NCBI GenBank assembly: GCA_048213135.1 | Contig: PS015205.1 | Span: forward strand, 15,509-79,508 | Direction: 5' to 3' | Length of the DNA: 64,000 nt | Source: Reclinomonas americana ATCC 50394 | Taxonomy: Eukaryota | Shown here: one piece after another, positions 3,801-60,200 of the stretch | How the letters are laid out: each line of letters starts with the position of its first letter | Position numbering within the stretch: position 1 is the stretch's first letter | The notes under the pieces: generated by a model | What the model was told of the DNA's origin: nothing | The model's database searches: none | Seen by the model: the letters and a program-made list of their open reading frames with translations, nothing else | Program-made: the position numbers and the translations under genes

Positions 3801-5243
3801 GCGGTGTCTTGGGTGGGTGACTGCTGTTCGGTGCTGTGTGGCGCAAGAGAGAGAGAGAGAAAAGTGAGCACAGCGATGCACAATGCAATGCAGGCACATC
3901 ATGGAACTCGCCTGCAGCTGAGAGAGAAGAGGACGAGATGCTCATCGGGTCGTCTCCTTCGTGCACTTCCATTCGCATCTGATTAATCGCATGCAGGTGA
4001 GGAACAGAAAGATATCTGCAAATGACCGCCTCGTCATGCAAACCCACTCAACTTGCTCCATGTGTGCCAGCAGCGAGTCTTGGTCAGCCTGACTCAGCGC
4101 ACCTGCATTCACACACAACCAAGAGAGCATCAGCATCCACATTCAACCAAATCATACAAGCACCAGCCATCTGTCTCCTCCCACTCACCATCACGAGCCT
4201 CGTTCAGCTGCACCACCAGCTCCTCCTCCACATCCCTGCCAATCTGCAGTCGTCGCACAAGCTGGCGCAACTCGCCCTCTCCTCTTCCGTCTCCGTCACC
4301 CAGCAGAGGCACAAAGAGTGCACGAGCTCGTGCAGGACTCGCCTGCTCAAACACCTCCCTCATTCGCTCAATCGCATTGCGCTGTGACAATGATAGAATG
4401 AGAGGCACAATCACACAGAGTGGGATATCACACTCCTCCTCTTCCTCCTTCTCATTCTCGTACACTCACCACATCGCCAGCTGGAATTAGCCGATCCGGC
4501 TCGTCTCTCGGGTTCTCTCGATGACCCGCCAACAGCAAGATCGAGCAGCACAGCATCGCATCAAATGAACTGCAGTCGTGCAGCTGGCCTCGCTGATGCC
4601 ACTCGCGCACCAGCTGGCGCTCCTTCTCGCTCAACTGAACACACATGTCCACTCCGTCTGGCATGGTGCTGCAATGTGGGGAAAGGCACAAAGAAAGAGA
4701 AGATGCCGGTGAGTGAGGGAATGTATGTGACAAGAAAGAGGGCGATTCATCGGGAAAGAATGCGGAGTCGTGTAAGGTGAGACAATGAAGAGTGCGAGAA
4801 TGGAGAGAAAGAGATGACCTGTGCGGCACCATCTGCCACTTGCTTGTGGCTCTTTCTCTTCTCAATCTCATTTACATCTCCATCTACATCTTAGTATTGT
4901 GTGCTCCCATATCCTCCCCCACACACACTCACCGCACATCACGCTCACTCGGCACCTTGCCCCACTCGGCGACGTGATTCACACCGGGATACGAATCGAG
5001 AAACGTCGGAAGCACTTGCTCGAGTTTGGATTGCAGAGCGCGGGTGCACGGACGAGACAGTGCTCTGGCGAGGCGCATCATGCATTCGTCATCACCAGCA
5101 TCGTGATGATGACTGCACGAGGGAGAGGAGAGTGACAGGGAACGAATCACACAATGTGAGAATGATGATGATGATTGCATCTGACAACAACACAATGAGA
5201 GAGAGACACGCAACTCACGCGGCACTCCACTTCCACTCGCCAT
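861..5243 (-). CDS. STAND/NB-ARC-like P-loop NTPase with C-terminal TPR repeats (NLR-like); putative HEPN-like N-terminal domain; multi-exon
   Basis: Spliced model from ATG 5243 (MASGSGVPRD...). It has Walker A VVLTGDGGTGKS (~3560-3600), Walker B AMLLDNV (~3170-3190), sensor-1 VVVTSR (~3000) and kinesin-light-chain-type TPRs (LGxxHPxTLxSMxNL) in the long last exon ending TGA 861. Exon phases are consistent; the exon near 4820-4850 is less certain. Confidence 0.8.
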
Positions 5244-5898
5244 GATAATGTGTCACAAAATCAAGAACAGCAACAGACAGCACACAGACAGATGCACAGG
5301 CTCTCTCTCTCTTTCTGGCACAATAAGAAGCGGAGAAATGCAACAGCTCTCTCTCCTTCTATCTTCTCTCTCGCACACACTGTGGGGAACAACGCTGACA
5401 CACAACAGCAGAGCGCACACAGGCTCACTTCTGCTCACAGCAGCAGCAATCAAGCACAATGTCACACACAATTGTGGGACAAAACTTGCGCATGCTGCCT
5501 CTCACAAGGCAGAACAGCGTGTCGCCTGGGAGTGGATTGCACTTCCACGTGCCATGCCGTGGCTCACGCGCCAGTGAAATCAACTGCAAACAAGATGAGT
5601 CGGCGACGTCGACGTCGAGAGTGATCGTCAACACGGAGTTCTCGGAAAGGAGAAGAGGAACGACGCAGAGTGAGCAGCTTCACTGACCATTCACAACTGC
5701 ACGCCGGCCTCTCTTGCTCGCCTCGGCACTTGGCTAATGCAGCGACAACTTTCACCGTTCGCCGACCAGCTGTGCATCTTTCTCCGTCCACCGTGAGCGT
5801 ACTGTTGCACGTCGTCGTCCGTGGCATTTCTACTATAGGTACCCAGGCCCCTCGCTCTCACCAAGTTCCCAATTGTGCATGTGCATTCTCCAGGTACA

Positions 5899-6393
5899 CT
5901 ACTTCTCCTTCTCCATCACCACCGACGACAACTCCTCCAACGTCACATACTTGAGCACCCCCTCATGCGTCGCCCGGAGATCCACCGGTGGCGCCACTCC
6001 CGCCTCCCACGCCTCCCGCCACCGCAACGCACACAAGCACCACTTATCTCCGGCGCGCAGGCCCGGGAAACGAAAATGCGGCGCCGGCGTCGACAAGTCA
6101 TTGCCGCGGCTCTTCGTAAACTCGAGAAACTCTTGCGTCACTTGCGCGCACACCACGTGGCGTCCACGGTCCATTGGACCGGTTCGGCAAAAGCCGTCGC
6201 GGTAAAAGCCGGTGACGGGTTGCGTGCAGCAGCTTTCCAGGGTGCCACCGAGGACGTTGCGGTCGTCGAGTTGTGGGCAGTCGCAGTTGGCGTTCATGGT
6301 GAGAGGGCAAGGGCAAGTGGGTGAGGAGGAGGCTGTAAGGGAGAGGGAGAGGGAGAGGACGATGAGGAAGAGGTGTGTGGTGATGGCGTGCAT
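5899..6393 (-). CDS. DUF2237 family protein, intronless, with possible N-terminal signal peptide
   Basis: Motifs NVLGGTLESCC..PVTGFYRDGFC, HVVCA..T.EFL.F.KSRGNDLSTP and GL..GDKWCLCA.RW.EA...G.APPV.L.ATH match the DUF2237 family as I recall it. Hydrophobic leader MHAITTHLFLIVLSLSLSLTA; an alternative start lies at ~6297. Confidence 0.85.
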   Translation of the reverse strand: MHAITTHLFLIVLSLSLSLTASSSPTCPCPLTMNANCDCPQLDDRNVLGGTLESCCTQPVTGFYRDGFCRTGPMDRGRHVVCAQVTQEFLEFTKSRGNDLSTPAPHFRFPGLRAGDKWCLCALRWREAWEAGVAPPVDLRATHEGVLKYVTLEELSSVVMEKEK

Positions 6394-6737
6394 GTGCTGT
6401 CTCCGGCGGAGTTTTTCGGCGGAGACAGGACAACGTGCGCCTCACCGTCGGGAAAGCTGGTGGTTGTTGCAATGAGCGTGGTGATCGACAGTGCGAGAGT
6501 GGGATCGCGAAAGAGCGATACGCGAGCGATTTCGAAGCGACACTTCAGTTGGGGTCATCGACGTCGAGGCAATCGGATGACCTGAACTTGGGAGCGGTGA
6601 GCCAATCACGTGACGAATACGTGGCACGATCGCTTGGAAGCGATGTGCAAGCGACGCGAAGCGTCACTTCAATTGTGGCCATTGAAGTCGAAGCGACCTA
6701 CCATTCGTTTACTGTGCATGGGATCCATACTCCTGTA

Positions 6738-8326: not shown

Positions 8327-8656
8327 AACAACTAAAGAGTGTGAGCACAGAGTGTGTGTTCTCGTCTGAGTCTCGCGCTGTTGCCTGTCTGCGCCTCTCT
8401 TCTCCTTGCCACCTTGTCTTGAGTTGCTCTTCTTCCCGCTCTTGTCTCTGTCTCACTCTTCTGTGTGCTGCCTCTCACAGTCTTGCTTCTCCTTGCCATC
8501 TCCTTCCCTTCTTCTTCTTGTTCTCCTCTCCATTCCTTACCTCTCTTCCTTCTCCTCACTACCTTCTTCCCGTCTTCTCTTCTTCTTGCTCTCCTTCCCG
8601 TGCCTCTCTTCCTTCTCCCTTGGCCTCCTTTTGCCCTCTCTCTCTCTGTTTGCACC

Positions 8657-11600
8657 ATGGGCACCAGCGGATCCAAGTCTCGTCCCTCCTCTGCTGGCGG
8701 GAACGGCAGTATGAGCATCTCGTCTTCGTCGTCTTCTCCGTCGGCATCGATGTCTGCCGCACAGCAGCGTCGGCGACAGAGGAGGCGCAGTGGAGGCACC
8801 TCGTCACAGCGCACTGAACCCTCCGCCTCTTCTCCGTCTTCGGCCGCTGTTGCTGCATTGGCTACTCCATCGGGACGCTCGCTCAGTCGAGTGGAGCTGG
8901 CGCATGAGTTTTGGTATTACTTGGAGGAGCAGGCGGTGGAGCGACTGCGTGCGGAGACGCGTCGGCGAGTTGCGTTGCCTTAATGCCCTCTGCAAGCAAG
9001 GCGATTCCCTCATTTTCGAACACACCGAACGCGCAGTTGGCGCAACCTCTGGACGACTCTGCTCATGTGGATTTGTCGGGCTTGGGTCGCTGCAGTGAGC
9101 AGTACGTGGCGGAGTTGTTGAAGAGCGGGGCCGATGTGCACCACACGGTCGACGAGGCGGTGTCGCTGGATGTGTCATTCAGCGATTTTCGTTCGCTGCG
9201 TGCCGTCGCGCCGCTGCTCACGTCGCAGTTGAAGACGCTGGTCGCGCAGGCGACGCTGATTGACGAGGGCGACGAAGGCGACGATGAGGAGGATGGCTCG
9301 CTGTCGTCGCTGCCGCGTCTGTGTCCGCAGTTGGAGCAGCTGTGTCTCGCCGACAATGAGGACATGCTGGTTCTCCCCGACGCGCTGCGTGGACTCAAGC
9401 AGCTGCAGCTGTGCGTGCCCCCCTCCTCTCTCTCTCACACACACACCGACACACGCATATTCTCTCTCCTATCTGTTTCTCTGTTTTCCTCGTGTTCTCT
9501 GATTACTCTTCCCTGTTCATTCGCTTGTTCCCTTTGTGCTCTGAATCCTCTTTGTCCTCGCTTCTTTCGCTTCTGCTCATCAACGCGGGCCTCTCTTTCT
9601 CGCTTTCTGTCGTCTCTCTTTCTCCCTGTCTCGCGCTCACTTTCCTCTCCCCATCTCTCCGTCCGCTCTGTGTTTCTCATTCCCCTTATCCTTTGTCAGA
9701 TCTTCGCCTCTTTCGTTTCTTGCTCGTCAACGCGAATCCGTCTCTCTTCCTCGCTCTTCCTCTCTTCGCCCTTTCTCTTTCTCCCTCTTTTATCCCTCTC
9801 CGTATCCCTCCCTCGCTCGCGCGCTTCCTCCTCCCCCTTCCGTCTTCCCCCTTCTCTTTCCCCTTCTCTTCCCCCATCTCTCCCCCCATCTCTCCCCCTT
9901 CTCTTCCCCCTTCTCTTCCCCCTTCTCTTCCCATATCTCTTCCCCCTTTGTCTTCCCCCCTTTTCTTCCCTCCTTCTCTTTCCCCTTCTCTTCCCCTTCT
10001 CTTCCCCCTTCTCTTCCCCCATNNNNNNNNNNNNNNNNNNNNNNNNNNNNNNNNNNNNNNNNNNNNNNNNNNNNNNNNNNNNNNNNNNNNNNNNNNNNNN
10101 NNNNNNNNNNNNNNNNNNNNNNNNNNNNNNNNNNNNNNNNNNNNNNNNNNNNNNNNNNNNNNNNNNNNNNNNNNNNNNNNNNNNNNNNNNNNNNNNNNNN
10201 NNNNNNNNNNNNNNNNNNNNNNNNNNNNNNNNNNNNNNNNNNNNNNNNNNNNNNNNNNNNNNNNNNNNNNNNNNNNNNNNNNNNNNNNNNNNNNNNNNNN
10301 NNNNNNNNNNNNNNNNNNNNNNNNNNNNNNNNNNNNNNNNNNNNNNNNNNNNNNNNNNNNNNNNNNNNNNNNNNNNNNNNNNNNNNNNNNNNNNNNNNNN
10401 NNNNNNNNNNNNNNNNNNNNNNNNNNNNNNNNNNNNNNNNNNNNNNNNNNNNNCTCTTCCCCCATCGTTTTCCCCCTTCTCTACCCCTCTCTTTCCCCTC
10501 ACTTGCCCCATCGTCTACCCCTTTCTCTTCCCTCTCTCCTTCCCCTCCTTCCCCTCCTTCCCCTTCCCTTCCCTTTCGCCTCTCCCTCACTCTCCCTCTC
10601 TCTCCCTCCCTCTCCCTCCCGCAGCCTCGACGTCTGCAAATGCGCACTGGAGGAGATGCCCGAGTGGATCGGGGAGCTGTCGTCGCTGCAGACGCTGCTC
10701 GTCTCCTTCAATCGGCTGGCCGGGTCGCTGCCAGAGTCGCTCGGCGAGCTGCGCCAGTTGCAGAAACTCGAGTGCCGCGGCACCGCCAAGCTGTACGAGG
10801 AGACCGGCGGCATCACGTCGATTCCGTCGACGCTCAGCCGCCTGGTGTCGCTGGTGCACTTGGACCTGGCGCACAACAGCATTGTCGGCTCGGTCAACTT
10901 TCTGTGCGACATTCCCAACCTCACCTACCTCGACGTTTCCTTCAACGCCGGCCTGCGCATCGGCTGCGATCGCCCATCGGCCGTCCTCGGTTGCATGGAC
11001 GACAGCATTGTGCGGCGCTTCTCGCCGCACCTGCGCGTGCTCAACTGCTCCAAGACTCTTGTCGCCGACTTGTCGCAGCTGCTGTGCGGATGTCGCGCGC
11101 TGGAGGAGCTGTACGTGCGGCACAATCCCAAGTAAGGCAGTCTCTTATTTGATTACAGAAGTAGTGGATTCTACCATTGACCTCCTCTCTCTCTTCAGAG
11201 TGGCCGACGACTTTTCTGCGCTGGTGGCGGAGCTGTCGGTCAACTGCCCCAAATTGCACACGCTCGACGTTAGCTTTTGCATGCTCGACGAGAGCCAATT
11301 GCGAGAGTTGTCGGCGCTGACCACCCTCGTGTCGCTGAATGTGGCGTGGACGCCGGCACTGACGCCCGACATTCTCTCGCATTTGCGTCGCTCGCTGACG
11401 CATGTGGAGCGGGTGCGGTGTTTGCGGCCGGACCACAAGTCGTACGAGTATAATGCGTTGGAGTGGTGGAGGGCGCCGGAAGGTGGGAGGGGGAAGGGGG
11501 GTGGGGAGGGGGAAGGGAGAGAGAGGAAGAGTAATAGAAGAAGGACCGGAGAGATGGGGAGGATGGGGAAGAAGAGGTTGAGCAATGTGCTCATTTTCCT

Positions 11601-14600
11601 GTTGGACTTCGCAGTGCCGAGTTGTGCCTCGTTGATTTCGCTGCCGTCGGAGCCGAATGCACTGTGCAGGGATCGAATTCGGGGGGCGCTGTGGGGGCAG
11701 GCGTTGGGAGATGCCATGGTGCGTTGGAGGGAGAGGGGCGGTAGGGAGGGGAGGGAAATGGTGTGCGGACAGACTTCTTTAAAATGGCAGGCGAGCGAAG
11801 CTCGTCTGCTGATGCAGGAGGGAGGATAGTGAGAGAGAATGGATGATGTGGAGCGTGAGAGTTCAGTGCTCTTCATTACCAGAGTCTCTATTCACATTCT
11901 CTTCTGCGTGGGAGTGAGTGAGAAGCGCATACTCTCTGCTCATGAAAGAGAAGAAACACTCTCGTCTATTTCTCTTCTCTCTTCATACGTGCTTGCGACC
12001 AGCGAGTCAAGAAGAACCTGTGTTTGTGTGATGGAAGGGTGCGCAGACAGTCAAATACACACGTTTTTCTTTCTTTAAATGGCAGGCGAGCGAAGCTCGT
12101 CTGCTGATGCAGGAAACGAGAGAAAGAGAAGGAATGGATGAAGTGGAGTGAGAGATCAGTGCTCTTCATTACCAGAGTCTCTATTCGCATTCTCTTTCTC
12201 GTTTGCGATTGAAAGGAAAGATAAGCTCTCTTCGTGCAAGGGAGAATGCTTCTTCGTTCTTTCTTCATGGCAGCTTGCAGCATGCGAGTCAGAGAACATG
12301 TGACTGAGAAAAAAGGTGCGCAGACAGGTGGATACATACAGATTTCTTTCTTTAAAATGGCAGGCGAGCGAAGCTTGTCTGCTATTGCAGGAAACGAGAG
12401 AAAGAGAAGGGAATGGATGATTAGAATGAGAGATAGAGAGAAGAGATCAGTGGCCATCTCTGTCAACGTCTTTCGTTGCGCACTCTGTTCTGCGACTGAA
12501 AGACAACGAAAAGGCGTTCTCTCTCTTCGCGAAGAAGAAAGGATGGCTTCTTTCTCTTCTCAGTTCTCATCTCTCTTCCAGATTGTTCTCGCTTCTAGAC
12601 TGTTAGAGGAGTGGTGCTCGAATCCTCTAGTTTCTGACCTTCGACCTCCACCACAGGGCCTCTCCACTGAATTTCTCAATCGCTACGCCGCTCTGCTGCT
12701 GTACGGCAACGAACCATTCTCGTTTGCGAATATTGCTCAGGACCGGCATCGCAGTCGATGGGTGCGCTCCGATCACACCGATGATACGGATCAGGCGGTG
12801 CGTAAAAGGGCAGGAGATGGAGATGGAGATNNNNNNNNNNNNNNNNNNNNNNNNNNNNNNNNNNNNNNNNNNNNNNNNNNNNNNNNNNNNNNNNNNNNNN
12901 NNNNNNNNNNNNNNNNNNNNNNNGAGAGAGAGAGAGAGAGAGGTGAAGAAGAGAGGGAGAGAGAGAAGGGAGAAGGGGGAGGGGGAGGGAGAGGAGAGAG
13001 TTGGAGAAAGAGAGGGAGTGGAAGAGAGGGGAAGAGAGGGACAGTGAAAGAAATGGTCAGTGAAAGAATGAGTGAGTCCCATGTTGAGAGGCAGTGCGTA
13101 AGTGCGTGGCTTGAGCTGATGTGGTTGTGTTGCATGTCTGGGTGAAAGTGAGAATGAAAGTGAGAGAGCGAGTGTTGGCGATTCTAAGAACCATGTGAGA
13201 GAGAATGAGAAAAGAAGGAGGGAGAGATGCAGAGAAGAGAGAAAGAGAGAAATAGAGAAAGAGAGAAAGAAAAAAGGAAGAAAGTAAGGAAGAAAGAAAT
13301 AAGGAAAGAAAGAAAGAAAGAAAAAGAAAAAAAGAAAGAAAGGAAGGAAGAAGGAAGAAAGGAAGGGAGAGAGAAGAAGAGAGAGAGAGCGCACGCGCTT
13401 TGATGTGGGTGTGCCATGTCTGCTGATCAATGAGAAAGTGGCGCGATGATTGTGCGTCGTTTGAGCAAGAGAAAGTGTGCGAAAGAGTGAGAAATCGTGT
13501 CTGTTGGGCACTGAGTGAGTGGCTAGCGCGGTTATATGAGACGGCGAATGTTTGCGAGAGAAAGAGAGAGAATGATTAGTCGCGCGTGTGTATGCAACTG
13601 AATATGCGAGTGAGTGGATGAGCTATTCACCGAGAACTTGAGGTCGATTGTGATCCTGCTGTTCTTTATCTTTGTGCTTACCCCTCTCCTGCCTTCATCC
13701 CCAGCTTGTGCTCATGGACACGCTTATGCTCTCGGAGGCCCGCGCGCCGCGTGTCGATCCCGTCGCTTTCGCGCACCGTCTGTATCACTGGGCAATGTGC
13801 GGACAGACGGAGCTGGCCGACGACGGCGGCAACGGCATGGGTCGCACCGTCAGTGCCGTGCTCTCGCACGAGGACTTTTCTCGCAATCCCCATGCGGTAC
13901 GCTTCATTTTATTCGCTTCTGTTTCTTCAGTGACACTGCTTATTCATCTCTCCTCCGACAGGCGGCCGAAGCGGTGTGGCGACGATACAGCTGCAACGCG
14001 GCGGCGAATGGGGCTGTCATGCGCACGAGTCCGTGTGGCTGCGTGCCGACCATCGACGAGGACGCGGCGGTGCAGTTGGCAAAGGATGCTTGCAAGGTCT
14101 TTCTGGAGAGATTTCTGTTCTCCCAACACTCTTGCCTGTTCCCACCCCGGATTGCGCAGGTCACGCACACCGATCCACGCTCCCTGGCCTCCTGCGTGGC
14201 AGTGACTGTGGCCCTGCTGGCCATGGTGCGCTCCAATGTCGAGTTGCTGCCGTCGGACGAGGTGGAGCGCATCTGCGAGCAGGCCAGTGCTCGCGCGTCG
14301 CGTGAACTGCAGGAGGCGGTGGAGGCCACCGGCTGCGATGCGTCGTCGATGACGGTGGCGGAGTTGCAGGAGGTGTTGGGTGCGCGCGAGTTTCGCGAGT
14401 GCCGACTGGATGATCAGGCTGCGATTGGGTAGGTGGTGCAGGAGGGAGAAGTCGGTGGTAGCAGAGTGTCTCTTATCGTATGAATGATAGGTACACGTAC
14501 AAGTGCCTCGGATCGGCGTTCGTGGCGTTGCGGTCGGAGCGGTCGTTTGAGGAGACAATGGAGGCGCTGATTGCGGAGGGCGGTGATGCGGATACGTTGC

Positions 14601-14797
14601 GTTTGAACATGGGGCAAAAAGGTGGTGGAAGGGTCGTGGTGCTAAAGGATGTGCGCAGAAATGGTGCGGCGGCGGGTGCGCTGCTGGGCTGTCGGCTGGG
14701 GTTCTCGCGCCTGCCGCAGGAGTTGGTGGGCGAGTTGCGGCATCAGGAGTTTCTGAGGAATCGCATTGAGGCGTTTATTGAGCATTTTGAGGGATGA
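8657..14797 (+). CDS. Leucine-rich repeat + ADP-ribosylglycohydrolase (ARH/DraG family) fusion protein with predicted N-myristoylation
   Basis: Starts MGTSGS. LRRs include LEQLCLADN, LQTLLVSFNRLAGSLPESLGEL, LVHLDLAHNSI and LTYLDVSFN. ARH motifs are RDRIRGALWGQALGDAMGLSTEF, DHTDDTDQA, AANGAVMRTSP, VTHTDPRSLASC and GGDADTNGAAAGALLG. All introns are phase-consistent GT-AG. Confidence 0.85.
11770..12420 (+). repeat. Three imperfect copies of an intronic repeat
   Basis: ttta(a)aatggcaggcgagcgaagct.gtctgct.atgcagga occurs at ~11778, ~12074 and ~12351. cagtgctcttcattaccagagtctctattc follows the first two copies. Confidence 0.8.
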
Positions 14798-15923: not shown

Positions 15924-16018
<95 letters not shown>

Positions 16019-16560: not shown

Positions 16561-16591
<31 letters not shown>

Positions 16592-19510
16592 CACGCACAC
16601 ACACTCACGAACTCGCAAACTCACGAACACACAAACACATACACAAAAACGCGTGCAAAGGGCAGTCAGCTCCACGTGAACGCTAACTGTGTATGTACAC
16701 AGACATGCAGACATGCAGGGGCACACACACACACACACAGATACACATACACATGCACACGCACAGAGAGAGAGAGACAGAGGCAAAAGTGTCAAGAGAG
16801 AGACACGAAGAGTGTGTGTGAGAGAGAGAGAGAGAGAGAGAGTGCGCGTGTGTGTATATGTGAGAGAGAGATAGCAGAGGGAGGAAGTTGGGGATGCGTG
16901 TGCTCACGACGCGGCGTGCGGTGACAGGTGTCAATTTTGGCTGGCGACTTTTTGTTGGGTCGAGCGTCGCTGGCACTGGCGCGCTTGCATAACACGGAGG
17001 TGGTGGAGTTGTTGTCGAAGGTCATTGAGCATCTGGCGTTGGGGGAGGTGAGCTGAATGGGGGGAAGGGAGGGGAAGGGAGGGGAAGGGAGGGGAGAAGG
17101 GAGGAGGTGGGGAAGGGAGAGAGAAAGAGAGAGAAGACAGCGGCGCTTGAATATTCCTCGCGAGACAACGGGGTGATCTGCTTTTCGTTTGAGATGGTTG
17201 AGGGCGCGCATTGGAGTTTCGCTTTGTGCGTGCGTGTGAGAGAGAGAGAGAGGGAGTGACGAAGCGCAGTGCTGCGATGTAGACGATGTGCTTCTTGTGT
17301 GTGAGAAAAGGAGCAAAGGGGAAGAGAAAGAAAAAGGGGAAGGAAAGAAGACAGGAAGAGAGCGAGAGAGAGGACGAGAGTGAAAGGGACTGAGAAAGGG
17401 AAGAAAAATGTGAGTTCTGCAGAGCACCCAGAAATTCGTTGCATATGCTGGAGTGACGAAGCGCAGTGCTCCGGATGCAGACAGTCTGCTGCTTGTGTGC
17501 GAGAGAGGGAGCAAAGGGGAAGAGAAATAGAAAAAGGGAAAGGAAAAGAGAAGAGAACGAGAGAGAGAGAGAGAGTGAGAAAGTGAATAGGGAATTAGCA
17601 AGAAGAAAATGAGAGTTCTTCAGAGCATTCGCAAAATTTCGTTGCATATGCTGGTGTGACGAAGCGCAGTGTTGCGGATGTAGAAGATCTGCTGCTTGTG
17701 TGCGAGAGAGGGAAAAAAGGCGAAGAGACAGCGGAAGAGGAAGAAAGTGAAGAGAACGTGAGAGAGAGAGAGTGAGAGAGTGAGAAGGAATGAGAAAAAG
17801 GAAGGAGAAAGAGAGTTCTCCCTCGCCTTTTCTCTTTCCCCCGTTTCATAACCCCATCCTCCTCCTCATTCTATTATCCGCTCTAGTTCTACCTTTCTTA
17901 ATTCACCTCCTTCCACCTTCCCTCCCTTCTCCCTCCCCCTCCCATTCTCCCTTCCCTCACCCACCCTTCTCCTCACCCCCACCCTTCCCCTTCATAGGTC
18001 ATCCAAATGACCGGCGTCCTCCCCGACTCCCCACCCGACGACGAACTGGCCGACGTGGTCAAGGAACTCATGTCCGGCACCTCCGTGCACACCTCCACCG
18101 AGGAGACGGTGGAGCTGTCGCGCTTCATCACCGGCTACATGCACAAGACGTACCTGAAGACGGCGTCGTTGGTGGCTAACTCGTGCAAGGCCGCCGTGTT
18201 GTTGAGCGATGGAGCGCAGTTGCGTGCACGCCCCCCCCCCCCCCCCCTCCCTCCCTCTCCTCTTCTCCTTTGCCTGCAGCACTCATGTCGCTCTCTTCTC
18301 CACCACAGAGATCCCACGCTCGCCGCCGAGGTCGCCAAGCTCGCCGAGGCGGCGCACTCGTTCGGCCGACACGTGGGTCTCACGTATCAGTTTGTGGACG
18401 ACTCGCTCGATGTGACGTCGGATGCGGCGACTGTGGGCAAGCCGGCGGCGTTCGCCGACTTGCGGCAGGGCACGGTGACGGCGCCGGTGCTGCTGGCGGC
18501 GCGGTACACGCCCTCACTACTGCCGCTTATTCGGCGGCATTTTTCGCATCAGGGGGATATTGATCAAGTTGCGAGAAGAAGGGGAAAGGGGGGAAAGGGG
18601 AAGGAGAGGGGAGAAGGGGTGAAAGGGGAAGGAGAGGGGAAGGCGAAGGAGAAGGAGGTAGAAGGAGAAAGTGGAAGGTGAGTGAGGAAGAAGAACTTGG
18701 AAGACAAAGCGAGAAGGAGAAGGCGAGAGAGAGAGAGAGAGAAGAGGGGTACAAGAGGAAACAAGGAAGGAGAAGGAAAAGTGAAAGAAGAAGGTGAAAG
18801 GAGAAGGTGAAAGGATATGAGAAAGGAGAATAATGAACGAGATGGGGGACGGAAAACGTGAAAGATGAGGTGATAAAGAAGGCGAGAAGGAGAAGTCGGA
18901 ATGAGATGCGGAGAGACAAGGGGGAGGAGAAGAGGGGAGGCGAAGGGAAAGGAGAAAGTGGAAGAAGAGAGTGAATATGGAGAGAGTGGAAGGAGAAAGT
19001 GAAAGGAGAAGAACGAAGGAGAACAGAGAAAAAAGAAGGGGAAAGTGGGAGAGGAAAGTGATTAGAGAAAGTGAAAGGAGAAGAGGGCAAGAGGAAGGAG
19101 AAGGAGAAATGAAAGTTGATAGTGAAAGGAAGAGGAAAGAGACTGTGAAAGGAGAGAGAGAAGAGGGAGATAAGAGTGAAGCACGAAGGAGAAGGAGAAG
19201 AGGGAAGGAGAGGGGGGCAGGAGGAGGTGTGGGGGATAGTGAAGGAGATGGGGGACTGAAAACGTGGAAAGAGATGGAGAAGGCGGGAATAGGGGATGGT
19301 CAATACCAGCATTGTCCTCACTCTCTTGGTGTCTCGTAGGGCCTGAGTGTGGTGACGGACTCCTTTGCCCGTGGCATCAACGACACGGTGCAGCTGGCGA
19401 CGTGGCACACGGAGAAGGCGGCGGATGCGCTGTTGCAGAGCTTCCGACCGAGTGGCGCCCGTGATGCGCTGGTGAATCTGGTGCGCAATATTTCACGGCG
19501 CAAGAGATGA
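15223..19510 (+). CDS. COQ1: Long-chain trans-prenyl (deca/solanesyl) diphosphate synthase, mitochondrial-type
   Basis: Motifs GKRMRP, LAEITEMIHVASLAHDDVID...RRG..SLN..YGNK.SILAGDFLL, YLKTASL, GLTYQFVDDSLD and GKP...DLRQG.VTAPVL. N-terminus is Arg/Ser/Leu-rich (MLSLLPRRCLA), like a targeting peptide. Six phase-consistent exons. Confidence 0.92.
17250..17730 (+). repeat. Three imperfect intronic repeat copies
   Basis: gtgacgaagcgcagtg...gatg.aga....tgct..ttgtgtg.gaga occurs at ~17256, ~17453 and ~17656. Confidence 0.7.
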
Positions 19511-20755: not shown

Positions 20756-20799
<44 letters not shown>

Positions 20800-21275: not shown

Positions 21276-24200
21276 TCACTGCAGCTCCAACGTAAACTGC
21301 CCACACGCCTCGCGTACGGCCCGCATCACACCAAGCACCTCCTGCGCTGTCGGCCGGTCGGGGCGCATGGTCATGCACCGCATGCCGATCTCGAACATTG
21401 GTTCAGCGATGCGTGGCGTCCACTCAATGCCGCCATCCACCATCTCCATGACGCGCAGCGACGCGGCACCGGAGCGATCCCACGTCACGGACCATCCCAC
21501 CACCATGGTTACTGGTTTGCCTGTGAGCAGCTGCACCAGCACAATGCCCATGCTGTACACGTCGTGTTCCGTCTGTGGTGTCCTCACACGCATCGCCATC
21601 GGGTCCATGTAATCGAGCGTGCCAGCGGCGGTTGTCGTCTGCGAGTTTGAGAAAAGGTGAGAGAGTGATGTGTGAACGAGGAGGAGGAAAAAGGAGGCAA
21701 GAAACCTTGCCGTCAACAATCGACCGTGCAATGCCAAAGTCACCGAGACATGCTTCGAAACGGTGATCGAGAAGCACATTGGAGGGCTTGATGTCACGGT
21801 GAACCACTTTGTTCTGCGAGGGAGGTGGTGGGTGAGCACACAATTACACCCGCAATTAAAGAGAAAACTAGAGAGTACTGATATGGCAACCCCAAGCCCA
21901 CTCTGCTCTCTGTATTTGCCTGCATGCATCTCTTAGCTCCCCAAGTTGCCCCTGCATCTTCAGATTTCGCTTTCTGTGCTTCATCATGGAAGTAGTTCCT
22001 TCTCCCTTTCTCTCCCTCTCTTAAGGCATCCGCAAACCTTGTGCAAGAACGCCACAGCCTCAGCCAGCCCGACACCAATCTGCACACGCTGCAACACAGA
22101 GAGCGGTGGACGACCGGCACGCGGCAACAGCAACAGATCTTCCAGGTTGGGAACCCTGGATGGTAGTAACAGTGAGACGCTGATGAAGAAAGGGAGAGGA
22201 GAGAAATGAGACACGCACTGCATAGCCTTGTAAACGAGACAGCGTGCCTTGTCGTCTCCCACCGAGTAGCCGACAAGGGGCACAATGCGACGATCACTCA
22301 GGCGACCGAGAGTGGCAACCTAGGATCCGGAGATGGCCACGAGATGAGGAGCAGCGGAGAGAAGGGAAGATTCAGGAGAGGAAGAGACACAAACCTCACT
22401 CTCGAACGACTCGACGGTCCAAGGTGCATCGGGATCGAGTACCTTGATGGCCACATGCGACTCCCGAAGCAGGGTGATGAAGACAGCACCCTGGCCACCC
22501 TCACCGACCTTCAAGCGTGGCGAGAAGGAGTCGGTGGCTTGCACAATCTCGGGCCACTGGAAGCGTTGCACCGAGATATCGACTGATCATGAACGACGCA
22601 ACATGAACGACGTGAGAAACGAGTTTCGAATTGCACCATGTGTGACGATGAAGACCTTGCGAAGCGAGAAGATCCTGCCGAAGCCGCAAAATGACATGTT
22701 TGCTTTCTTGTAGCTGTTGCTCCACAGCGGTCAGCTGAGTGGCAAAATCGTCCTTGTCGCGCATCGCCGCAGTCAGCTGGGACGCTAATTGATCTCGTTC
22801 GACTCGCAGCTGCGTGTTGCTCTGCTGCAGCTCAGAGTTGGTCCGTTGTAGCTGGGCATTCTTCTGCTGCTCTTCAGCCTCCCCTCGTTGTAGATCCGCG
22901 ACAGTTTGCTGCAGTCGGGCTACTCGTTGCTGCCCCTCGGTCCTGTTTTGTTGCAGCTCCGTGTTGGCTCGCTGCAACTGAACCACAATATCTTCGTGCT
23001 CTCGTTGCTGTCGGTCCCACTCTCTCTGCTGCCGTTCCCGTTCCTGTTGCGCAGCGGTGAGTTCGCGTTGAAGTCGGGCGTTGAGCGTGTCCTTTTCGGC
23101 AAGCTGGCGCGCCATGCTGTCGTCATCAGCTCTCTAGTGTGCATGAGAGACAGGAATCATAAGTACGATGCTGAGACAAGTGGTAATGAAGAGGGAGGGT
23201 ATTGACAGTCACCTGGCGCTGTGCTGCTGCATGTTTCAAAGGGGCATTCAACGACGCGAGAGAGAAACTCACAGTAAGCGACAACGAAAACGCGAGTCAA
23301 TCATTTGCTGAAAGTGGCAATGAGACAGCACCTGCTGCTGGCGATGGCGGTGGTGATTGAGCTTGAGATGGGGATCGCTGGTGCTGTTGAAGTCGACTTG
23401 GTGAGACAGCACCTCCTGCTGGCGATTGTGGTGGTGATTGAGCTCGAGATGGCGAGCGCTGGTATTGTTGATGTCGACTCGGTGAAGCGGGCTCGAGCTC
23501 GTCGAGATCCTGCAGCTCAAGACGTAGTGGCTCTGCAGCGTAGCGGTCAAGCAACTCGGCCACTTGCCGCTTGCCCTCCTCACGAGCCGACTGAGCGGCT
23601 GTCTTGCCCTTTTTGTTGACCATGGGAACGAGGTCCGGGAAGCGAGTGGCGAGGAGTCGCACAATTGCTTCGTGACCGTGCAGAGCGGCGAAATGCAGAG
23701 CAGTGCTCTGAGGACTGTTGGTGTGGTCATTGGTGACCGTCAGCGCCATCTCCGGCGAGCACCGGCGCTCATCGGCAAGCAGCCACTCCACCACTCGCAA
23801 ATGCCCGTTGTGGGCGGCCATCATCAATGGCGTCTGGCCGCCGTCGGTGACAATTGGTGCGAGTTGAGGCCCGACGCCGCTCTCCTCCCACAAGTACTCC
23901 AACACAGTGAGACGACCGTTCAAAGCGGCCTTGGCAAACGCCGAGCAGCCAATCTTATCCGTCTCATCTCTCAGCAGCAGAGTGTGTGCGCCCTCACGAG
24001 CCACCAGTTCGCGCAGAGCCTTCACATCTTCGTCTGCCCCTGTGGCTATCGGTGATGCTTGTTGCTGCTGCTGCTGCTGCTGCTGCTGTTGACCGGATGC
24101 AGATGGCTGCAGTTGCTGAGCAGCGAGGCGGTCGATCAAATCGGCCACGTCAGTGTGGCCCTGCTCACGCGCCATCTCCGTCGCCGTCTTGCTCTCCTTG

Positions 24201-24772: not shown

Positions 24773-24790
24773 TCCACACACTCAATCGCA

Positions 24791-37627
<12,837 letters not shown>

Positions 37628-54200: not shown

Positions 54201-57200
54201 CATGCACACGAACGTGTCTTTTCTCTCTCTTTCGTAGTGTTCCACTCGCTGTGTCGAGTCGCTTTCTGCATTTCTCTTTTTGTATCTGTGTTCATGTCAC
54301 TATTCCTGTAGATGGTGTTGCGTTGGTTCCTCTCTCCCATTCCTCTCTGCCCGGCTCACTTCTTTCATTCTTGCCGTATGTCACTCGAAGTCTCTCCTTC
54401 TCTCACACGCACTTCTCTTACCGCTCTCTATAATCTCTTCTCTCAAACTCTGTCTCTTGCGCCCACTTTCTCCGTGCCGCTCACCGCTTCTCTTCTGTCT
54501 GTCCTTCCTCAGTTTCCATTCGCGTTATTGTTCTCATCATGTCGCAATTGAAAGGTTGCCTTGGCTCTGATTCTCTCCACCCGCCTTTTGTCTCTCCCTC
54601 TCCCTCTCCCTTCCTCTCCCCCCTCCGCCCTCCCTCCGCCCTCTCCTCCCCCTTCTCCCTCCGCCCTCCCCTCACCCCCGTCTTCTCCTTCCCACTCACT
54701 TCCCCTCGCGCAAGCAGGGCCCCGCCGAGGCCTTCTTCCAGCCCCTGCTGCTGGCCTCGTACATTCTCCTCGTCGCCGTCGTCGGCATCTACTACCTGGC
54801 GCCGGAGACCGCCTATGCAGGACCACTGAACGCCACCCTCCCCTCGCTGACGGCGGCCGCCACCGAGGCGCTCTCCTCCGACGCGCTGGTGGCCGTTCCT
54901 CCATCACTGCTCGGACGACTGTACGACGCCTCCACATACGTGTGGTCACCGTCGCAGTGGCTGTGGCTGTTCAGCATCCCGACGACGCTGGTGGAGCACG
55001 CGCACATCAAGACCTCGGTGACGTGGTCGGCGTTTGTCCTGGCGATTCTGCTGGCGGTGCCGTACCTCAGTGCGGAGACATTTGAGAGGGCGTCGCCCGG
55101 CATTCCGCCGCATCGCTTGATCATGCACGTGCTGATTGCCATTTTCGTGTTCACCATTTGCTTCCGCGAGGCCGTCCTGCCGTGGCAGGCACTGGCCCTG
55201 CTAATGGCGGTTGCCTGGTATCGTTGCGTTTTTGGTGTCGGTGTCATTGCCTTGATTGGGAGTTGACATGCGTGTGACAGCCAAATTTGTGGAGCGGTAT
55301 GCGCGCACAAAGTCATACACGTCGCAGCTGTTCTCCTATGGTCGCCTGTGGCTCGCCGCTCACGTATCGCTGGCCTTGCTTGTTGGCGGCCTGTGGCCCG
55401 AGTCCGCGTACTGGGCTCCTCTGTCGGACCTGGTGCCGCCCAGCGTGACGAGCTTGAGTTGCGTTGTCACTGCAGTGCCTGTCTGCCTGTCTTGTTGTCT
55501 TTCCCAGTATCGCTGCTTCCGTGTCTGTGGTTCCACTTCCGTCTGTCTCCTTCTCCTTTACCGCGCAATCATTGTCATACCTGTAGTGCTCTTTCTCGCT
55601 TTCGTTGTGTCTCGCGCCACGCCCTCTTTCTCTCTGTCTGCATGTTGTGCTCTCTCCCTCGCTTTCTCTGCTTGCGAACATTCCGCCCCATTTTTCCGTC
55701 AGCCTGTCACACCGCTCCTATTCCTCACTCTCTTTTCACGCACTGTTTGTTATGTGTCTTCCTGTTGCGTTCATTCTCGTTTTCAGTTGTGTATTGCAAT
55801 CTCTTTACCTCCATTTCTAGTTCACTTTCTCACTCTCCTTCTCTCTTCCTTCGAGCCTGCCGTTCCATTTCCGTTGTACTCTCTCGTCCTCTCATTTCTC
55901 CTTCTCTATAACTTTCATGCACTCAAAATTGCCATTCTCGCTTAAGTTGTGTCTCGCGCCCTTGCTTTCTGCATTAACGCACTCTCGGTGTCATTCCATA
56001 TTCGATCAGTTTTTGTCTGCGTCTCGCTCGGAATCACTCCCTTTAGTGTCTCGCAGATCGCTGTCAGTTACTCTCTCCCTCTCATCCAGCCCTCTCCCTT
56101 TCCCCCAGCCTATCTTCGGTTCCCTTTTCCCCTCTCCCGCGTTGCCCTTCCTCGTTCCCTCTTCCCATTCCTTCTTTCCCATTCTTTTTTCCATTGTCCC
56201 CTTTTACCCTTCCCCTTTTACCCTTCCCCCTTTCCCCATCGCCTTTCCCCTTCCCCCTTCCCTTCCCCTTTCCTCCCTTTCCCTCGTCCCTCGTCCCCTT
56301 TCCATTCTCCCCCCTTCCCCTTACCTTTCCCTTCTCCTCCTCCTCGTTCTCCTGCACAGCTTGTGCGTTCACCGGCTGCCTCGCACCCCACACCGCCCGC
56401 GCTCTCCTCTGCATCCTCCGCGACCTGTTCTACGGCCCGGCGGCTGCATTCCTGCTCACCTCCGCCGTGTCGTGGATCATGCGACCGGTGCGCTGGAATC
56501 CATTCTTCGTGTCCGCCACGGTCGGTTCGTTCGGCATGCTGCGTGCACTGTGGCGCCAGTTGCGCACGCAGTACAAGAAGGTCAGTTGTAGAGCGAAGGC
56601 TGGGGTGGACGTTGCGCACGCTGAGAGATTATGCAGGCGGGCAACGACGACGACGGCGACGCGGTAGCAAAGAGGGAGGCGGATCCGAACGATGCGCAGC
56701 GCCAGGAGGGCGTAGTGGATGTCGTGGATGTGGCAGCGGCGGCGGCGGTGGCGGCTGCCGTGGTGCCTCCGCGAAATGGAGTCCCTGAACCCGGCGCGAT
56801 GCCTGACGGATACGATCCCTTGGTGGAGGTCACCGATACCCTGGTACGCTGTGCTTTGCATGTCTCGTCAGCTGGTCATGCCTCATTTGGTGCTTGCGCA
56901 GCGACCCAAGTGCTTCCCGGCCTCGATTCAACCCACCAAGGAGCTGCGTCGTATGATGAAAGGTTGGGAGATTTCTCCGTCCTCGTCTATTTCTTATTGG
57001 GAGACAAACCTCACATGGCTCTGCAGTCAATCGCTGGTGGCTGGCGGTCATGCGCTTCTTGCATCCGGTTGAAGATCAGCCTCTTGTGTGTTGGCGGGTG
57101 CGTCGATTCGTTCATTTGTTTTCGCGTCCCTTTACTGATCGTCGCACATTGTGCAGTCGTGTCTGCTGTACTTCACCTGCGTTGTGGCGTATCTTGTCCT

Positions 57201-60200
57201 CCTCGGCACCCACAGCATGCAGTCACTGCACTTGGCGGCATTCGGCGTATTTGTCTTTCTCACCTTTTGCGATCTCACGCATTTCCTCATGGTCGGCACC
57301 TATATCCTGGACGGTTCGTCTTATACGCGCGAATTCCATCGTCAAGCGACTCATTCTGCTCCCAACAGCCAATCGTCGCCGAGTGATGCTTCCGTTCTTT
57401 GTCATCTACGGTGTTGTGTTGGTGGTGCTCGACGTGGTGCCCATGTTCTTGGTGTGGAGTGGCGTCGCCGAGGCCACGATCGAAGTTCGATTCACCATGC
57501 AGGTGATTGAGGAGAAAGAGAGTCCGTTCCCTACTTGGTGGCGATGTTTTAAAAAACTTGATTGCTCGCAGTGCATGGAGCTTCTGACGATATTCGTGAC
57601 GGTGCTGCTTGTGTGCATGCCCGAATACTATTGCGGGGAAATCTTTGTTGCGTCGTCGTTTCTCTCTGTGCATTGGGAGCGCGTGCGTGTGCTCACGTTC
57701 CGCCCCTGCAGTCTGCACGCATCGCTGGTGTCGTGCTGCTGCTCGTGCGCCTGGTCATGCAGCTGTCGATGCCCACGTGGCTTGTGTTGGGCTCGTACCC
57801 GACGCAGGCGCTGGCTATCGCGTTTTTGGTGTGGGCGTGTTTTATTATGGCGGGGGCGATACATTCGAAGTGCGTGGGGAAAGGGGAAGGGAGTAGGGAG
57901 GGAGGAAAGTGGGGGAGGTAGGGGGAAGGGAGGGAGGGAGGGGGAAGGGAGGAAAAGGAAAGAAAGGGGAGATATGCAGGGAGATGAAGCGAATGGAGAA
58001 ATGGTCTGTGGGAGCCTTGTGGGAGATATGTGCTTCCGGAGATGAGAGAGTGTCGTGCAAACGTGAAGTGAGAGAGAGACGAGAGTCACGATAGTTGAGA
58101 GACGGAGTCGTGTGGATGATTGAGACGGAGAATGTGTTCTGGAAAATGCAATCCTTGCCATCATTTGAGGCAGAGGAGAGAGAGAGAGAGATAATTAGAG
58201 ATAGAGAGACAGAGAGACAAAGAGAATGTATGCATCAGTATCAGAGAGCGCGTGTGCAAAGAACTCTACAAACAGGCCACTTTCAGTTCTCTCAGTCGCT
58301 CCCCTTTCTGCATGTGTGTTCAATGAGAGCCACGGACAGACAGAAGGAGAGCACGCAATCTCTGCTGTTCTCTCTCTCTCTCTGGCATCTTCTTTATTTG
58401 CTGTTTTTCTTTTTCTTCCCTCTCACACTCCGTCTCCCTCTCTTGTATTGTAGTTTCCAAGACATTGTCTCTTCCCTGAGTCGACTTTGTGTCGCCTTCG
58501 TTCTCGTGCTGCTTTGATTCTTTTTATCTCTCAGCTGTTCTCTCTCTTGCATCTTCTTAATTTGCTGGTTTCCCTTTTCTTCCTCTCACACTCTGTCTCC
58601 CTCTCTTGCATTGTATTCCTCAAGGACCTTGTCTCTTGCCGTCTCCCTTGGTTCGGTGTTGTATTCATCCTTTCTATATCTCTGCTGTTCCCTCTCTTGT
58701 ATCTTCTTAATTTGCTGGTTTCCCTTTTCTTCCTCTCACACTCTGTCTCCCTCTCTTGCATTGTATTCCTCAAGGACCTTGTCTCTTCCCTGAGTCTGTG
58801 TTGCTGTTCTCTCGCTCTCTCACTTGCATCTCTCGTTCTTCTTTATGAACTGTTATCTCTCACACTCCGTCTTCCTCTTTTGTATTGTATTCTCCAAGAC
58901 GCTGTCTCTGCTCTGTGTCTGCGTGTGTCCCCTTCGTTCTTGTGCCGTATTCTTTCAATATCTCTACTTTTCTCGCTCATGCTTCTCTCTTTCTTTCCTC
59001 CCAGAGAGAGAATTGGGAGAAGGTCCTTCTCGTATCTCAATACTCACTGATGTGCCTTGGTGCAGCGATGCAAACCTTGGCCGCATGGACCCTCAGTTGC
59101 TCCTCTACGCTTTCATTGGCCTCCTAGGCACCCTCGTCGTGGTATTCACGCATGGTATGTGCGCGGTCGTTTGTGACCTTTTCCGCGTCTCCCGCTCACC
59201 AGCCTTGCCTTGTCAGTGGTGCAAGCCGAATTTATGGTGCTTGCGGCCTCGCTCGCGACGTATTTCTTGTCGTTCTGCTTGGCCGATGGCATCGGACACA
59301 TGTCGCAGCCGACGAGGCGTATTGCGGCCGGCGGTGAAATTTTGATGATTGGCGTGTTGATTGGCAGGTGCGTGAGAGGGAGGGAGAGAGAGAAAAGGAG
59401 AGGGAGAGAGAGAGAGAAGGAGAGAGAGAGAGAGAAGGGAGAGTGAAAGAGAGAGAAGGGAGGGAGAGAGTGAGAGAGAAAAGAGAGAAGGGCGAGAGAG
59501 AAGGGCGAGAGAGAGGGGTGAGATGGAGAGAGAAAATGGAGACCAAGTATGAGAGAAATAGACTTGCAATGAGAGAAAGAGAGTGAGAGCGAGAGGGAGA
59601 GATAAAAGGATTTGAAGAGAGGAGGGAAAGCGAAGGGAGAGGGGGAGAGGGAGAGCAAAGGGGGAGGGAGAGTGAGAAGGGAGAGGAAGAGAATTGGGAG
59701 AGAGTGGGGATAAGGGTGATGGAGAGAAAATTGAGACGAAGGAAGAGAGAAATATGCTTGTAACAGGAAGCGAGAGAGAGAGAGAGACTAAAAGAAATAT
59801 AAGTAGAATGGAAGAGAAAGGGGAGAGGGCAGACGTGAAGGGAGAAAGCAGGGTGAGAGACAGAGAGAGAAAAAGGAGAGAGATGGAGAGAGAGACAGGG
59901 AGAGGCCAGGTAAGAGAGAAAACTTGCACAGAGAAGAAGAAGGAGGAGGAGAAGAAGAAGAAGAAGAAGAAGAAGAAGAAGAAGAAGAAGAGAGAGAGGG
60001 AGAGAGAAAATGAGTGAGTGACAAGAGAGAGAAGTAGAGAGACAAGTGGAGTGGCAGAGAGACGAACAGAAAGACAAGACGAAACAAATTAGAGCTAACG
60101 AGAGCACCGCTCATCTTCTACCCCCCTTCTTATTCTACCTCCTCCTTCACTTCCCCCTTCCTTCTCACTCCCTTTTCCTTTCCTTCTCTCTTCAATCTCC

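Follow-up and report, generated by a model that had tools for sequence, protein, structure and literature searches.

GTTGCG as a regular second class of 5′ splice site in a window of Reclinomonas americana DNA, and its possible reading by U1 in a shifted register

Introduction

Human 5′ splice sites (donors) may be paired by U1 small nuclear RNA (snRNA) in registers other than the canonical one, and two of these registers are the natural comparison for the donor word studied here, GTTGCG, which we have analysed in a stretch of 64,000 nt of Reclinomonas americana ATCC 50394 DNA (hereafter, the window; GenBank assembly GCA_048213135.1, contig PS015205.1, positions 15,509 to 79,508 of the forward strand, with all coordinates below counted within the window). 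In one of them, reported by Roca and Krainer in 2009 and known to us as described in Tan et al. 2016 (PMC4856993), U1 pairs in a +1 shifted register; in the other (Roca et al. 2012, as cited in Tan et al. 2016), a base is bulged at +2/+3. According to the sections of Tan et al. drawn on here, the validated non-canonical registers together account for 1.5% of 201,541 human donors, and the “Shifted +1” oligonucleotide of their Table 2 carries GUCAAGU. The +1 shifted human sites, as these sections present them, resemble the donors of the window in having GU at +1/+2 followed by U at +3, a U1-pairing block that lies one base deeper and a cut at the GU. By contrast, they are a handful of atypical sites, whereas about one intron in five is concerned here, with one nearly fixed word; moreover, the word here is GCGU and is coupled to the absence of an exon-final G. 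The human bulge +2/+3 register, in the same account, is alike in having an extra U after the GU and ahead of the bases that pair with U1 positions 6-3, but it leaves C9 free for an exon-final G.

Changed U1 arms have also been described. In the sections of Roy and Bowser (bioRxiv 10.1101/2022.06.08.495308) covered here, Entamoeba has the arm AACAAAC with GUUUGU donors and Mastigamoeba has ACGUAC with GUGCGC. In these Archamoebae, as in the window, a donor whose +3 is U or whose +4 is C misfits the textbook arm, and there a changed arm restores the pairing; the G at position 5 of the Mastigamoeba arm is the change that we calculate below to rescue GUUGCGU. However, the Archamoebae are presented with one donor class in normal register, whereas the window has two classes offset by one base. 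The same sections treat three lineages with a preference for C at +4 and report a standard U1 arm for two of them, Thecamonas trahens and the Mamiellales. Their GUGCGU-type donor consensus is like that of the main class here, but the sections covered mention no shifted GUUGCGU class in them. A literature search for the words GTTGCG, GUUGCG and GTTGCGT returned primers, aptamers and microRNAs (miRNAs) and, among the titles listed, nothing on splice donors, and no title or abstract found in the Thecamonas literature on splice sites and introns describes a GUUGCGU class; nor do the sections of Tan et al. 2016 drawn on here.

With respect to these systems, GUUGCGU would be a known minority mode of donor recognition that is used as a regular, word-specific second class. 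The register flexibility of about 1.5% of human donors would become a regular part of the splice code, and such a genome would be a natural system for studying the uncoupling of U1 pairing from the choice of the cut site, the co-evolution of snRNA arms and donor words, and the lifting of the exon-final G constraint on coding sequence. There is also a practical side, as position-weight donor models would miss or misplace about one donor in five in this genome.

Materials and Methods

The evidence base consists of the window itself plus protein homology. The window is gene-dense eukaryotic DNA, with a GC content of 0.46-0.57, nine N gaps and many short introns. Introns were placed by donor-blind spliced alignment, using a protein-to-genome aligner that allowed introns only as GT (or GC)...AG and had no other knowledge of donors; the resulting set comprises 37 introns, 8 of which start with GTTGCG. 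As a second method, we used a gene parser on a coding-potential Markov model, in which introns were defined as GT...AG and later as GT...YAG. The parser is crude, since its exact recovery of the 37 alignment-placed introns was 11/37 when donor-blind and 20/37 after learning signal models, and it was consequently used for enrichment only and not as a catalogue. Even once it had learned a donor model, 11 of the 19 GTTGCG sites escaped it. For single sites, we examined the reading frame, the coding score and how far a read-through runs before the first stop. Homologs of the ADP-ribosylglycohydrolase (ARH) were found neither by word-index search nor by tblastn on plasmids, so the coordinates of the Pfam profile were used for the ARH junction.

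Motif counts were compared with those in 100 dinucleotide-preserving shuffles, and expectations for the parses were derived from the fraction of all 6,873 GT sites that read GTTGCG. Folding energies were calculated for donor positions -3 to +9 against the 11-nt U1 5′ end given in Table 2 of Tan et al. 2016; as pseudouridines and the proteins of the small nuclear ribonucleoprotein are excluded, these values are a rough guide.

The GTTGCG donors of the window

An earlier note on this DNA, made from the sequence alone, had proposed that introns starting with GTTGCG are needed at 19 places to restore reading frames and conserved motifs. The motif is present at all 19 coordinates, and the 19 donors read GTTGCG(T/A/C); the sites on the minus strand have 5209, 45785, 48317 and 48950 as their lower coordinates. 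A small error concerns an example of the commoner GTGCG donor, given at 43302 and actually found at 43303. Both words are in excess in the window: there are 53 matches to GTTGCG, against 29.9 +/- 5.2 after shuffling (53 was reached in 0/100 shuffles), 24 to GTTGCGT, against 6.4 +/- 3.0 (equalled in 0/100), and 243 to GTGCG, against 128 +/- 11.

The same note had favoured cleavage at the GT, and this holds for seven sites by homology or profile and for four by reading frame and donor-blind parse; for the rest the evidence is weaker, and at none of the 19 is the claim refuted. A YAG acceptor could be traced for 13 of the 19 sites. In the best grade (A), cleavage is fixed by homology or profile (a solidus marks the cut, and fractions give the homologs that place the intron):

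14596..14658, plus strand: GTTGCGT intron of 63 nt, phase 2, in the ADP-ribosylglycohydrolase gene (GGDADT/NGAAAG)
18568..19339, plus strand: GTTGCGA intron (caa/GTTGCGA) of 772 nt, phase 0, in a polyprenyl synthase gene (GDIDQ/GLSV); 36/55 homologs and both parses
44255..44325, plus strand: GTTGCGA intron (gaa/GTTGCGA) of 71 nt, phase 0, in a DUF486/DMT_6 gene (AFIE/YVMQ); 19/30 homologs, and 1 more in another phase
44612..44673, plus strand: GTTGCGT intron (tgt/GTTGCGT) of 62 nt, phase 2, in the DUF486/DMT_6 gene (AFV/LILAG); 22/30 homologs and both parses
45082..45790, minus strand: GTTGCGT intron (ctt/GTTGCGT) of 709 nt, phase 0, in a MAPKK gene (SAEELL/GHPFVDE); 9/14 homologs with the intron penalty lowered to 8, the GHPF exon being located
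48257..48322, minus strand: GTTGCGT intron (caa/GTTGCGT) of 66 nt, phase 2, in the MAPKK gene, directly before a 15-nt microexon; 4/14 homologs
48427..48955, minus strand: GTTGCGC intron (caa/GTTGCGC) of 529 nt, phase 0, in the MAPKK gene (VAVKQ/VPVAL); 5/14 homologs

All four conserved-motif anchors that had been put forward (GDADT/NG, E/Y, VAVKQ/V and EELL/GHPF) were confirmed. Across 14596-14658, the Pfam profile PF03747 is contiguous, as the upstream exon holds its positions 229-265, the split codon 266 and the downstream exon, from the first residue on, 267-287. At the first three intron positions of the MAPKK gene, those at 48955 and 48322 included, no rival intron reached 3 homologs, and FYk/DHLLw/FVTEYMD aligns to P0071 without gaps. 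The microexon itself (48242-48256, minus strand; DHLLW) lies between a GTTGCGT and a GTGATG intron, and the alignment to a plant MAPKK runs through it ungapped.

The sites of grade B rest on reading frame plus donor-blind parse, with a short intron and a YAG acceptor:

8969..9036, plus strand: GTTGCGT intron of 68 nt, phase 0, cga/GTTGCGT...GCGCAG, from the donor-blind parse; on read-through, a stop follows 4 codons after the donor
18219..18308, plus strand: GTTGCGT intron (gca/GTTGCGT) of 90 nt, phase 2, in the polyprenyl synthase (COQ1-like) gene
28889..28948, plus strand: GTTGCGT intron of 60 nt, phase 1, found by the donor-blind (YAG) and informed parses, with CTTAC 21 nt before the acceptor
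37324..37387, plus strand: GTTGCGT intron of 64 nt, phase 0, in a TKL-type kinase gene, found by both donor-blind parses; read-through meets a stop after 2 codons

For 18219, homology is ambiguous, with 9/55 homologs against 22/55 for a rival GC donor at 18214 and the junction in a variable loop; the site was kept because the donor-blind parse with YAG acceptors found exactly 18219-18308. The intron at 37324 is not placed by kinase homologs, and it is the sole site of the 19 that follows an exon-final G, with an in-frame GT 3 nt upstream.

In grade C, a coding frame runs into the site and the donor is a candidate whose acceptor is not fixed:

25785..25791, plus strand: candidate donor GTTGCGC, for which an acceptor at 26663 or 26733 fits the frame; upstream frame of 29-34 codons with coding scores of 16-17 and no homolog
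26862..26868, plus strand: candidate donor GTTGCGT, with an N gap inside the intron and the acceptor not fixed; upstream coding frame score 24.3, read-through stop after 14 codons
29616..29622, plus strand: candidate donor GTTGCGT, with the acceptor at 30487 in two parses across an N gap, 30550 and 30727 scoring similarly
33009..33015, plus strand: candidate donor GTTGCGT, with the acceptor perhaps at 33769; upstream frame score 21.4, read-through stop after 4 codons
51469..51475, plus strand: candidate donor GTTGCGT, with the acceptor (untraced in the earlier note too) perhaps at 52335; upstream frame score 14.0
55458..55464, plus strand: candidate donor GTTGCGT, with the acceptor at 56359 in one parse, not fixed; upstream frame score 27.7

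Two further sites are weak (grade D):

57647..57711, plus strand: putative GTTGCGT intron of 65 nt, phase 0, in a membrane-protein-like gene; open frame up to the donor, acceptor CCCCTGCAG with CTCAC 20 nt upstream of it
5113..5214, minus strand: putative GTTGCGT intron of 102 nt, phase 2, after a first exon of 9 codons

The former has a rival in an upstream donor, 57503, which is in frame with the same acceptor, and the evidence for the latter is weak because the intron is in frame and stop-free.

If the true donors lay elsewhere, for instance at the GT five bases downstream, the whole class would be an artefact of annotation. The donor-blind parse did sometimes take the downstream GT (26867 and 33014), and no acceptor is proven for 8 of the 19 sites. 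However, where homologs choose between the two, the first GT wins, with 22/30 for 44612 against 1/30 for 44617 and 9/14 for 45790 against 1/14 for 45785, and in the ARH gene the profile is contiguous to the residue. We consequently regard this explanation as very improbable.

Beyond the 19 sites, coding frames also run into GTTGCGT at 22602 (minus strand) and 55223 (plus strand), with an early stop on read-through, and these may be additional donors. Some short introns of the window are stop-free and keep the frame, namely 14596-14658, 18219-18308 and 44460-44516 on the plus strand and 5113-5214 on the minus strand (63, 90, 57 and 102 nt). As the retention of such multiple-of-three introns keeps the frame, annotation based on open reading frames easily misses them.

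Two donor classes

GTTGCG starts 8 of the 37 alignment-placed introns, against 0.36 expected if positions +3 to +6 were independent (p = 2e-9). A single position-independent donor model, which the earlier note had named as the explanation to be excluded, therefore fails in this window. The parses give a similar picture: with GT...AG introns, GTTGCG stands at 5 of 79 donor-blind donors, after GTGAGT (6) and GTGCGT (6), where 0.6 would be expected (p = 4e-4), and with GT...YAG introns at 6 of 68, after GTGCGT (7), where 0.5 would be expected (p = 2e-5). The donors fall into two classes and do not form one fuzzy consensus. The main one has C at +4 in 12/28 donors and G at +5 in 23/28, and the second, which starts about one intron in five here, looks routine rather than rare on the counts from this window.

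In other respects, the introns of the two classes are alike. Median lengths are 68 nt for GTTGCG introns and 73 nt for the others; the acceptor is CAG in 11/13 and 24/29, respectively; and a CTNAY motif is found before the YAG acceptor (12-48 nt before it, within positions -50 to -7) in 10/13 GTTGCG introns and 26/29 others, against 21.5% of random intron 44-mers. To judge from these features, GTTGCG introns are ordinary U2-type GT-AG introns.

Introns of the minor, U12 type have the donor (A/G)TATCCTT and a rigid branch site near the acceptor. This type was rejected for the GTTGCG introns, as the donor word is wrong in 19/19 and at the 3′ end they resemble the other introns. An introner-like repeat family was considered as well; by eye, however, the 19 sequences share nothing after +7, so the GTTGCG introns are not a repeat family.

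Flanking positions and the register of recognition

The two classes differ at the exon's end. In the alignment-placed set, an exon-final G precedes 0/8 GTTGCG introns and 28/29 of the others (Fisher p = 2e-7), and over all claimed GTTGCG sites it is found in 1/19. The bases at -1 of the 19 sites are A10 T5 C3 G1; in canonical donors they are G28 A1 at -1 and A14 T7 G4 C4 at -2. The log-likelihood of the GTTGCG -1 column is -22.4 under the canonical -2 composition, against -63.4 under canonical -1 and -29.8 under the exon background. Relative to that background, A is enriched (10/19 vs 17.5%, p = 5e-4) and G is depleted (1/19 vs 34%, p = 0.004). At the other side of the word, +7 is T in 15/19 GTTGCG donors, compared with 9/34 of the other matches to GTTGCG in the window, those inside exons being mostly GTTGCGG or GTTGCGC.

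The flanks thus align with those of ordinary donors only after a shift of one base, with -1 resembling canonical -2 and +7 resembling canonical +6, and the TGCGT block lies one base deeper. This supports the suggestion, already made in the earlier note, that the TGCG element is used in two registers. Aligned in this way, the donors of both classes that are built on TGCGT read A-G-(G or T)-T-G-C-G-T and are cut before the first GT. The alignments and counts from this window demonstrate two classes, the position of cleavage and the matching flanks at the level of the sequence, and we infer that the reader of the word is U1.

The base at +3 of the second class is particular. The words GTAGCGT, GTCGCGT and GTGGCGT have 0, 5 and 14 matches in the window, against 24 for GTTGCGT, and none of the three was seen as a donor. 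The ordinary register admits U at +3 too, since other GTT donors (GTTTCT, GTTTGC, GTTCCC, GTTTGT, GTTCGC and GTTTGG, at 21639-22394 and 38442-38604 on the minus strand and at 44460 on the plus strand) follow an exon-final G.

On balance we lean towards a model in which the donor signal would be one word, approximately A-G-(G or U)-U-G-C-G-U, cut before its first GU and read by the U1 5′ arm, in the second class with a shift of one base. When the letter after the first G is G, the exon would keep the first G (...AG/GUGCGU), producing the common class; when it is U, the intron would begin at that first G (...A/GUUGCGU) and no exon-final G would be needed. In the latter case, G+1 would stand opposite C9, U+2 would be unpaired opposite C8, U+3 would pair with A7, GCGU with U1 positions 6-3 and the A at -1 with U10. 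The cut site would be set by the GU, through U6, U5 and Prp8, and not by the U1 register.

A bulge would account for the word in another way. The register would be the normal one (G+1 with C8, U+2 with A7), one U of +2/+3 would be bulged and GCGU would pair as it does in GUGCGU. The number of pairs equals that of the shifted register, a bulge at +3 (or +2) is among the registers validated at human sites in the sections of Tan et al. 2016 (PMC4856993) used here, and the extra base is always U, so that with two U's the bulge may sit at either. But C9 would remain free, and the exon-final G should then persist as in the other introns; instead, G at -1 is below background and A is enriched. The absence of the exon-final G favours the +1 shifted register over a bulged U, which we hold to be an unlikely explanation.

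Pairing with U1

With the standard U1 arm, the 29 ordinary donors fold with a mean energy of -6.7 +/- 2.3 kcal/mol, 28 of the 29 in the canonical register, whereas the 19 GTTGCG donors fold at -1.2 +/- 1.1 kcal/mol and in no consistent register. The class is also specific for its word, as there are 24 matches to GTTGCGT and 6 to GTTGAGT, though GTGCGT (83) and GTGAGT (88) are about equally frequent (Fisher p = 0.0014). The standard arm is predicted to have the opposite preference among shifted words, with -4.8 for GUUGAGU and -1.4 for GUUGCGU. Specificity for GCGT speaks for a reader that places G against the C and, taken together with the weak pairing of the textbook arm, makes a variant U1 likelier than a simple shift of the human style.

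Two changed arms were folded for comparison. For a hypothetical arm ACGCACC, which carries G and C at positions 5-6, the energies are -8.3 with ordinary donors and -7.4 with those of the GTTGCG class; with this arm, caa/GUUGCGU is predicted to fold in the shifted register, which is the best fold at -8.3, the A at -1 being paired to U10, and A, C or G at +3 costs about 2 kcal/mol. An arm of the Mastigamoeba type, ACGUACC, gives -8.0 and -5.4, respectively. An arm of the ACGCACC type is a prediction from these calculations and not a finding. More speculatively, then, the U1 arm of this organism would not be the textbook ACUUACC but would carry G (perhaps C) at positions 5-6, pairing with the C of GCGU. 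The fuller proposal, that an arm retuned in this way (G, perhaps C, at 5-6) reads one word in two registers or that a second U1 paralogue serves GTTGCG alone, is put forward tentatively, as somewhat doubtful. If the retuned reading were true, about a fifth of introns would be cut one base upstream of the place that pairing predicts, and exon ends would be freed from a near-universal terminal G. The proposal makes sharp predictions on three points: the sequence of the U1 arm, the profile at -1 and GCGT being preferred to GAGT.

A second, dedicated snRNA might instead exist beside the standard U1, be it a U1 paralogue or another small RNA, complementary to GUUGCGU in a normal register of its own. 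It would suit the very weak pairing of the standard arm with the GTTGCG class and the nearly fixed, GCGT-specific word of that class. However, an arm complementary to GUUGCG in normal register (of the CGCAAC or CGCAAC-C type) was rejected, as it would prefer G at -1, contrary to the data, and the matching flanks (-1 with -2 and +7 with +6) are more simply explained by one reader. Additionally, no such RNA was seen in the window: the Rfam scan gave 0 matches at gathering scores, and thus no U1 or U6, and at E<=5 it also gave no U1 or U6 but only matches of miRNA or small nucleolar RNA type, far below threshold and in low-complexity DNA. A dedicated snRNA consequently seems improbable to us.

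It has also to be considered that the donor is defined mainly by a protein or by U6 and U5, U1 pairing being marginal and UGCGU being either recognised by a protein (U1C-like or other) or read at a later step by U6, with a loop of one base. The weak pairing predicted for the standard arm agrees with this, as does the fact that two lineages with C at +4 are reported with a standard U1 in the sections of bioRxiv 10.1101/2022.06.08.495308 covered here; moreover, according to the sections of Tan et al. 2016 (PMC4856993) used, U1 registers can be diverse without U6 having to match them. By contrast, the ACAGAG box of U6 is without a G for the C of GCGU (taking textbook U6 plus the A43/+4 pairing given in those sections of PMC4856993), and the preference for A at -1 fits pairing with U10. 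We therefore think that a donor of this kind has little chance of being the explanation.

Several observations weigh against the shifted reading of one word by U1. When folded with the standard arm, only 1 of the 19 GTTGCG donors is most stable in the shifted register, and all the folds are weak. With either arm, N/GUGCGU is predicted to be more stable than N/GUUGCGU; in the homology set, contrary to these predicted stabilities, non-G exon ends are followed by GTTGCG in 8 cases, by GTGCGT in 0 and by GTACGT in 1. Among 23 extra introns agreed by two parses, 3 are GTTGCG and 7 of the other 20 lack the exon-final G, for instance at 9411 (agct/GTGCGT), 30667 (tata/GTGCGT) and 34304 (gtca/GTGCGT), some of these calls being doubtful. 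Read in frame, 9411, 30667, 34304 and 29007 show no contradiction, and homology confirms none of them. The G rule is thus not absolute, and non-G ends can carry an ordinary strong donor. The standard U1 in two of the three +4C lineages lowers the prior for a changed arm. Lastly, the eight sites without a proven acceptor and the crudeness of the gene parser count on the same side.

Other introns and features of the window

The remaining introns placed by alignment, or considered beside them, belong to six genes (homologs in brackets).

Class III alcohol / formaldehyde dehydrogenase gene, minus strand, with one Azospirillum protein as reference:
42254, minus strand: aag/GCATGT (GC-AG)
42121, minus strand: gag/GTGCGT
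41623, minus strand: cag/GTGGGA
40600, minus strand: agg/GTGCGT
40418, minus strand: acg/GTGAGC
39417, minus strand: atg/GTACTC
39331, minus strand: agg/GTGCGT
38716, minus strand: ccg/GTGAGT
38604, minus strand: gag/GTTCGC
38507, minus strand: gag/GTTTGG
38343, minus strand: atg/GTGCGT

DUF486 gene, plus strand, 30 homologs, introns other than GTTGCG:
44338, plus strand: cag/GTCCGT (20)
44460, plus strand: aag/GTTTCT (29)

MAPKK gene, minus strand, 14 homologs, introns other than GTTGCG:
48241, minus strand: ctg/GTGATG (5)
48099, minus strand: acg/GTATGT (7)
47009, minus strand: gga/GTACGT (7)
46759, minus strand: tcg/GTGCGT (13)
46465, minus strand: ttg/GTGAGA (12)

Polyprenyl synthase gene, plus strand, 55 homologs, other introns:
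15590 or 15602, plus strand: ambiguous within a GTGAGAGAGAGA repeat (7 and 10)
16379, plus strand: intron (55)
17048, plus strand: intron (31)

TKL-type kinase gene, plus strand, 96 kinases:
35244, plus strand: ttg/GTAGGA (72)
35423, plus strand: ttg/GTGCGC (66)
36526, plus strand: cag/GTGAGG (72)
37181, plus strand: gtg/GTGCGT (41)

Ankyrin-kinase gene, minus strand, 96 kinases:
21705, minus strand: aag/GTTTCT (88)
22037, minus strand: aag/GTTTGC (55)
22154, minus strand: agg/GTTCCC (20)
22394, minus strand: gag/GTTTGT (20)

The GC-AG intron of the dehydrogenase gene occupies 42182-42254 (minus strand), and a GT alternative 12 nt upstream would remove four conserved residues. Exon 40602-40916 (minus strand) of the same gene has about 80% protein identity to copies on alphaproteobacterial (Azospirillum) plasmids or chromids, and 2,205 plasmid records match it.

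A good coding frame leads into gcaa/GTTGAGTGGG at 4052 on the minus strand. The site is among just 6 matches to GTTGAGT and could be GTGAGT in shifted form.

Among the sub-threshold Rfam matches, those to plant miRNA precursor families lie at 41885-42071, 25324-25446 and 50023-50187 (31-43 bits, against gathering scores of 64-137), the first of them within the intron 42121-41706, and they are most likely chance hairpins. Finally, a pair of paralogous genes of the STAND-NTPase/TPR (NLR-like) type stands at the two ends of the window (864-3614 and 61069-63996, both on the minus strand); their long exons span 635 and 631 codons (TPR_10, TPR_12), and a P-loop exon is at 3447-3614.

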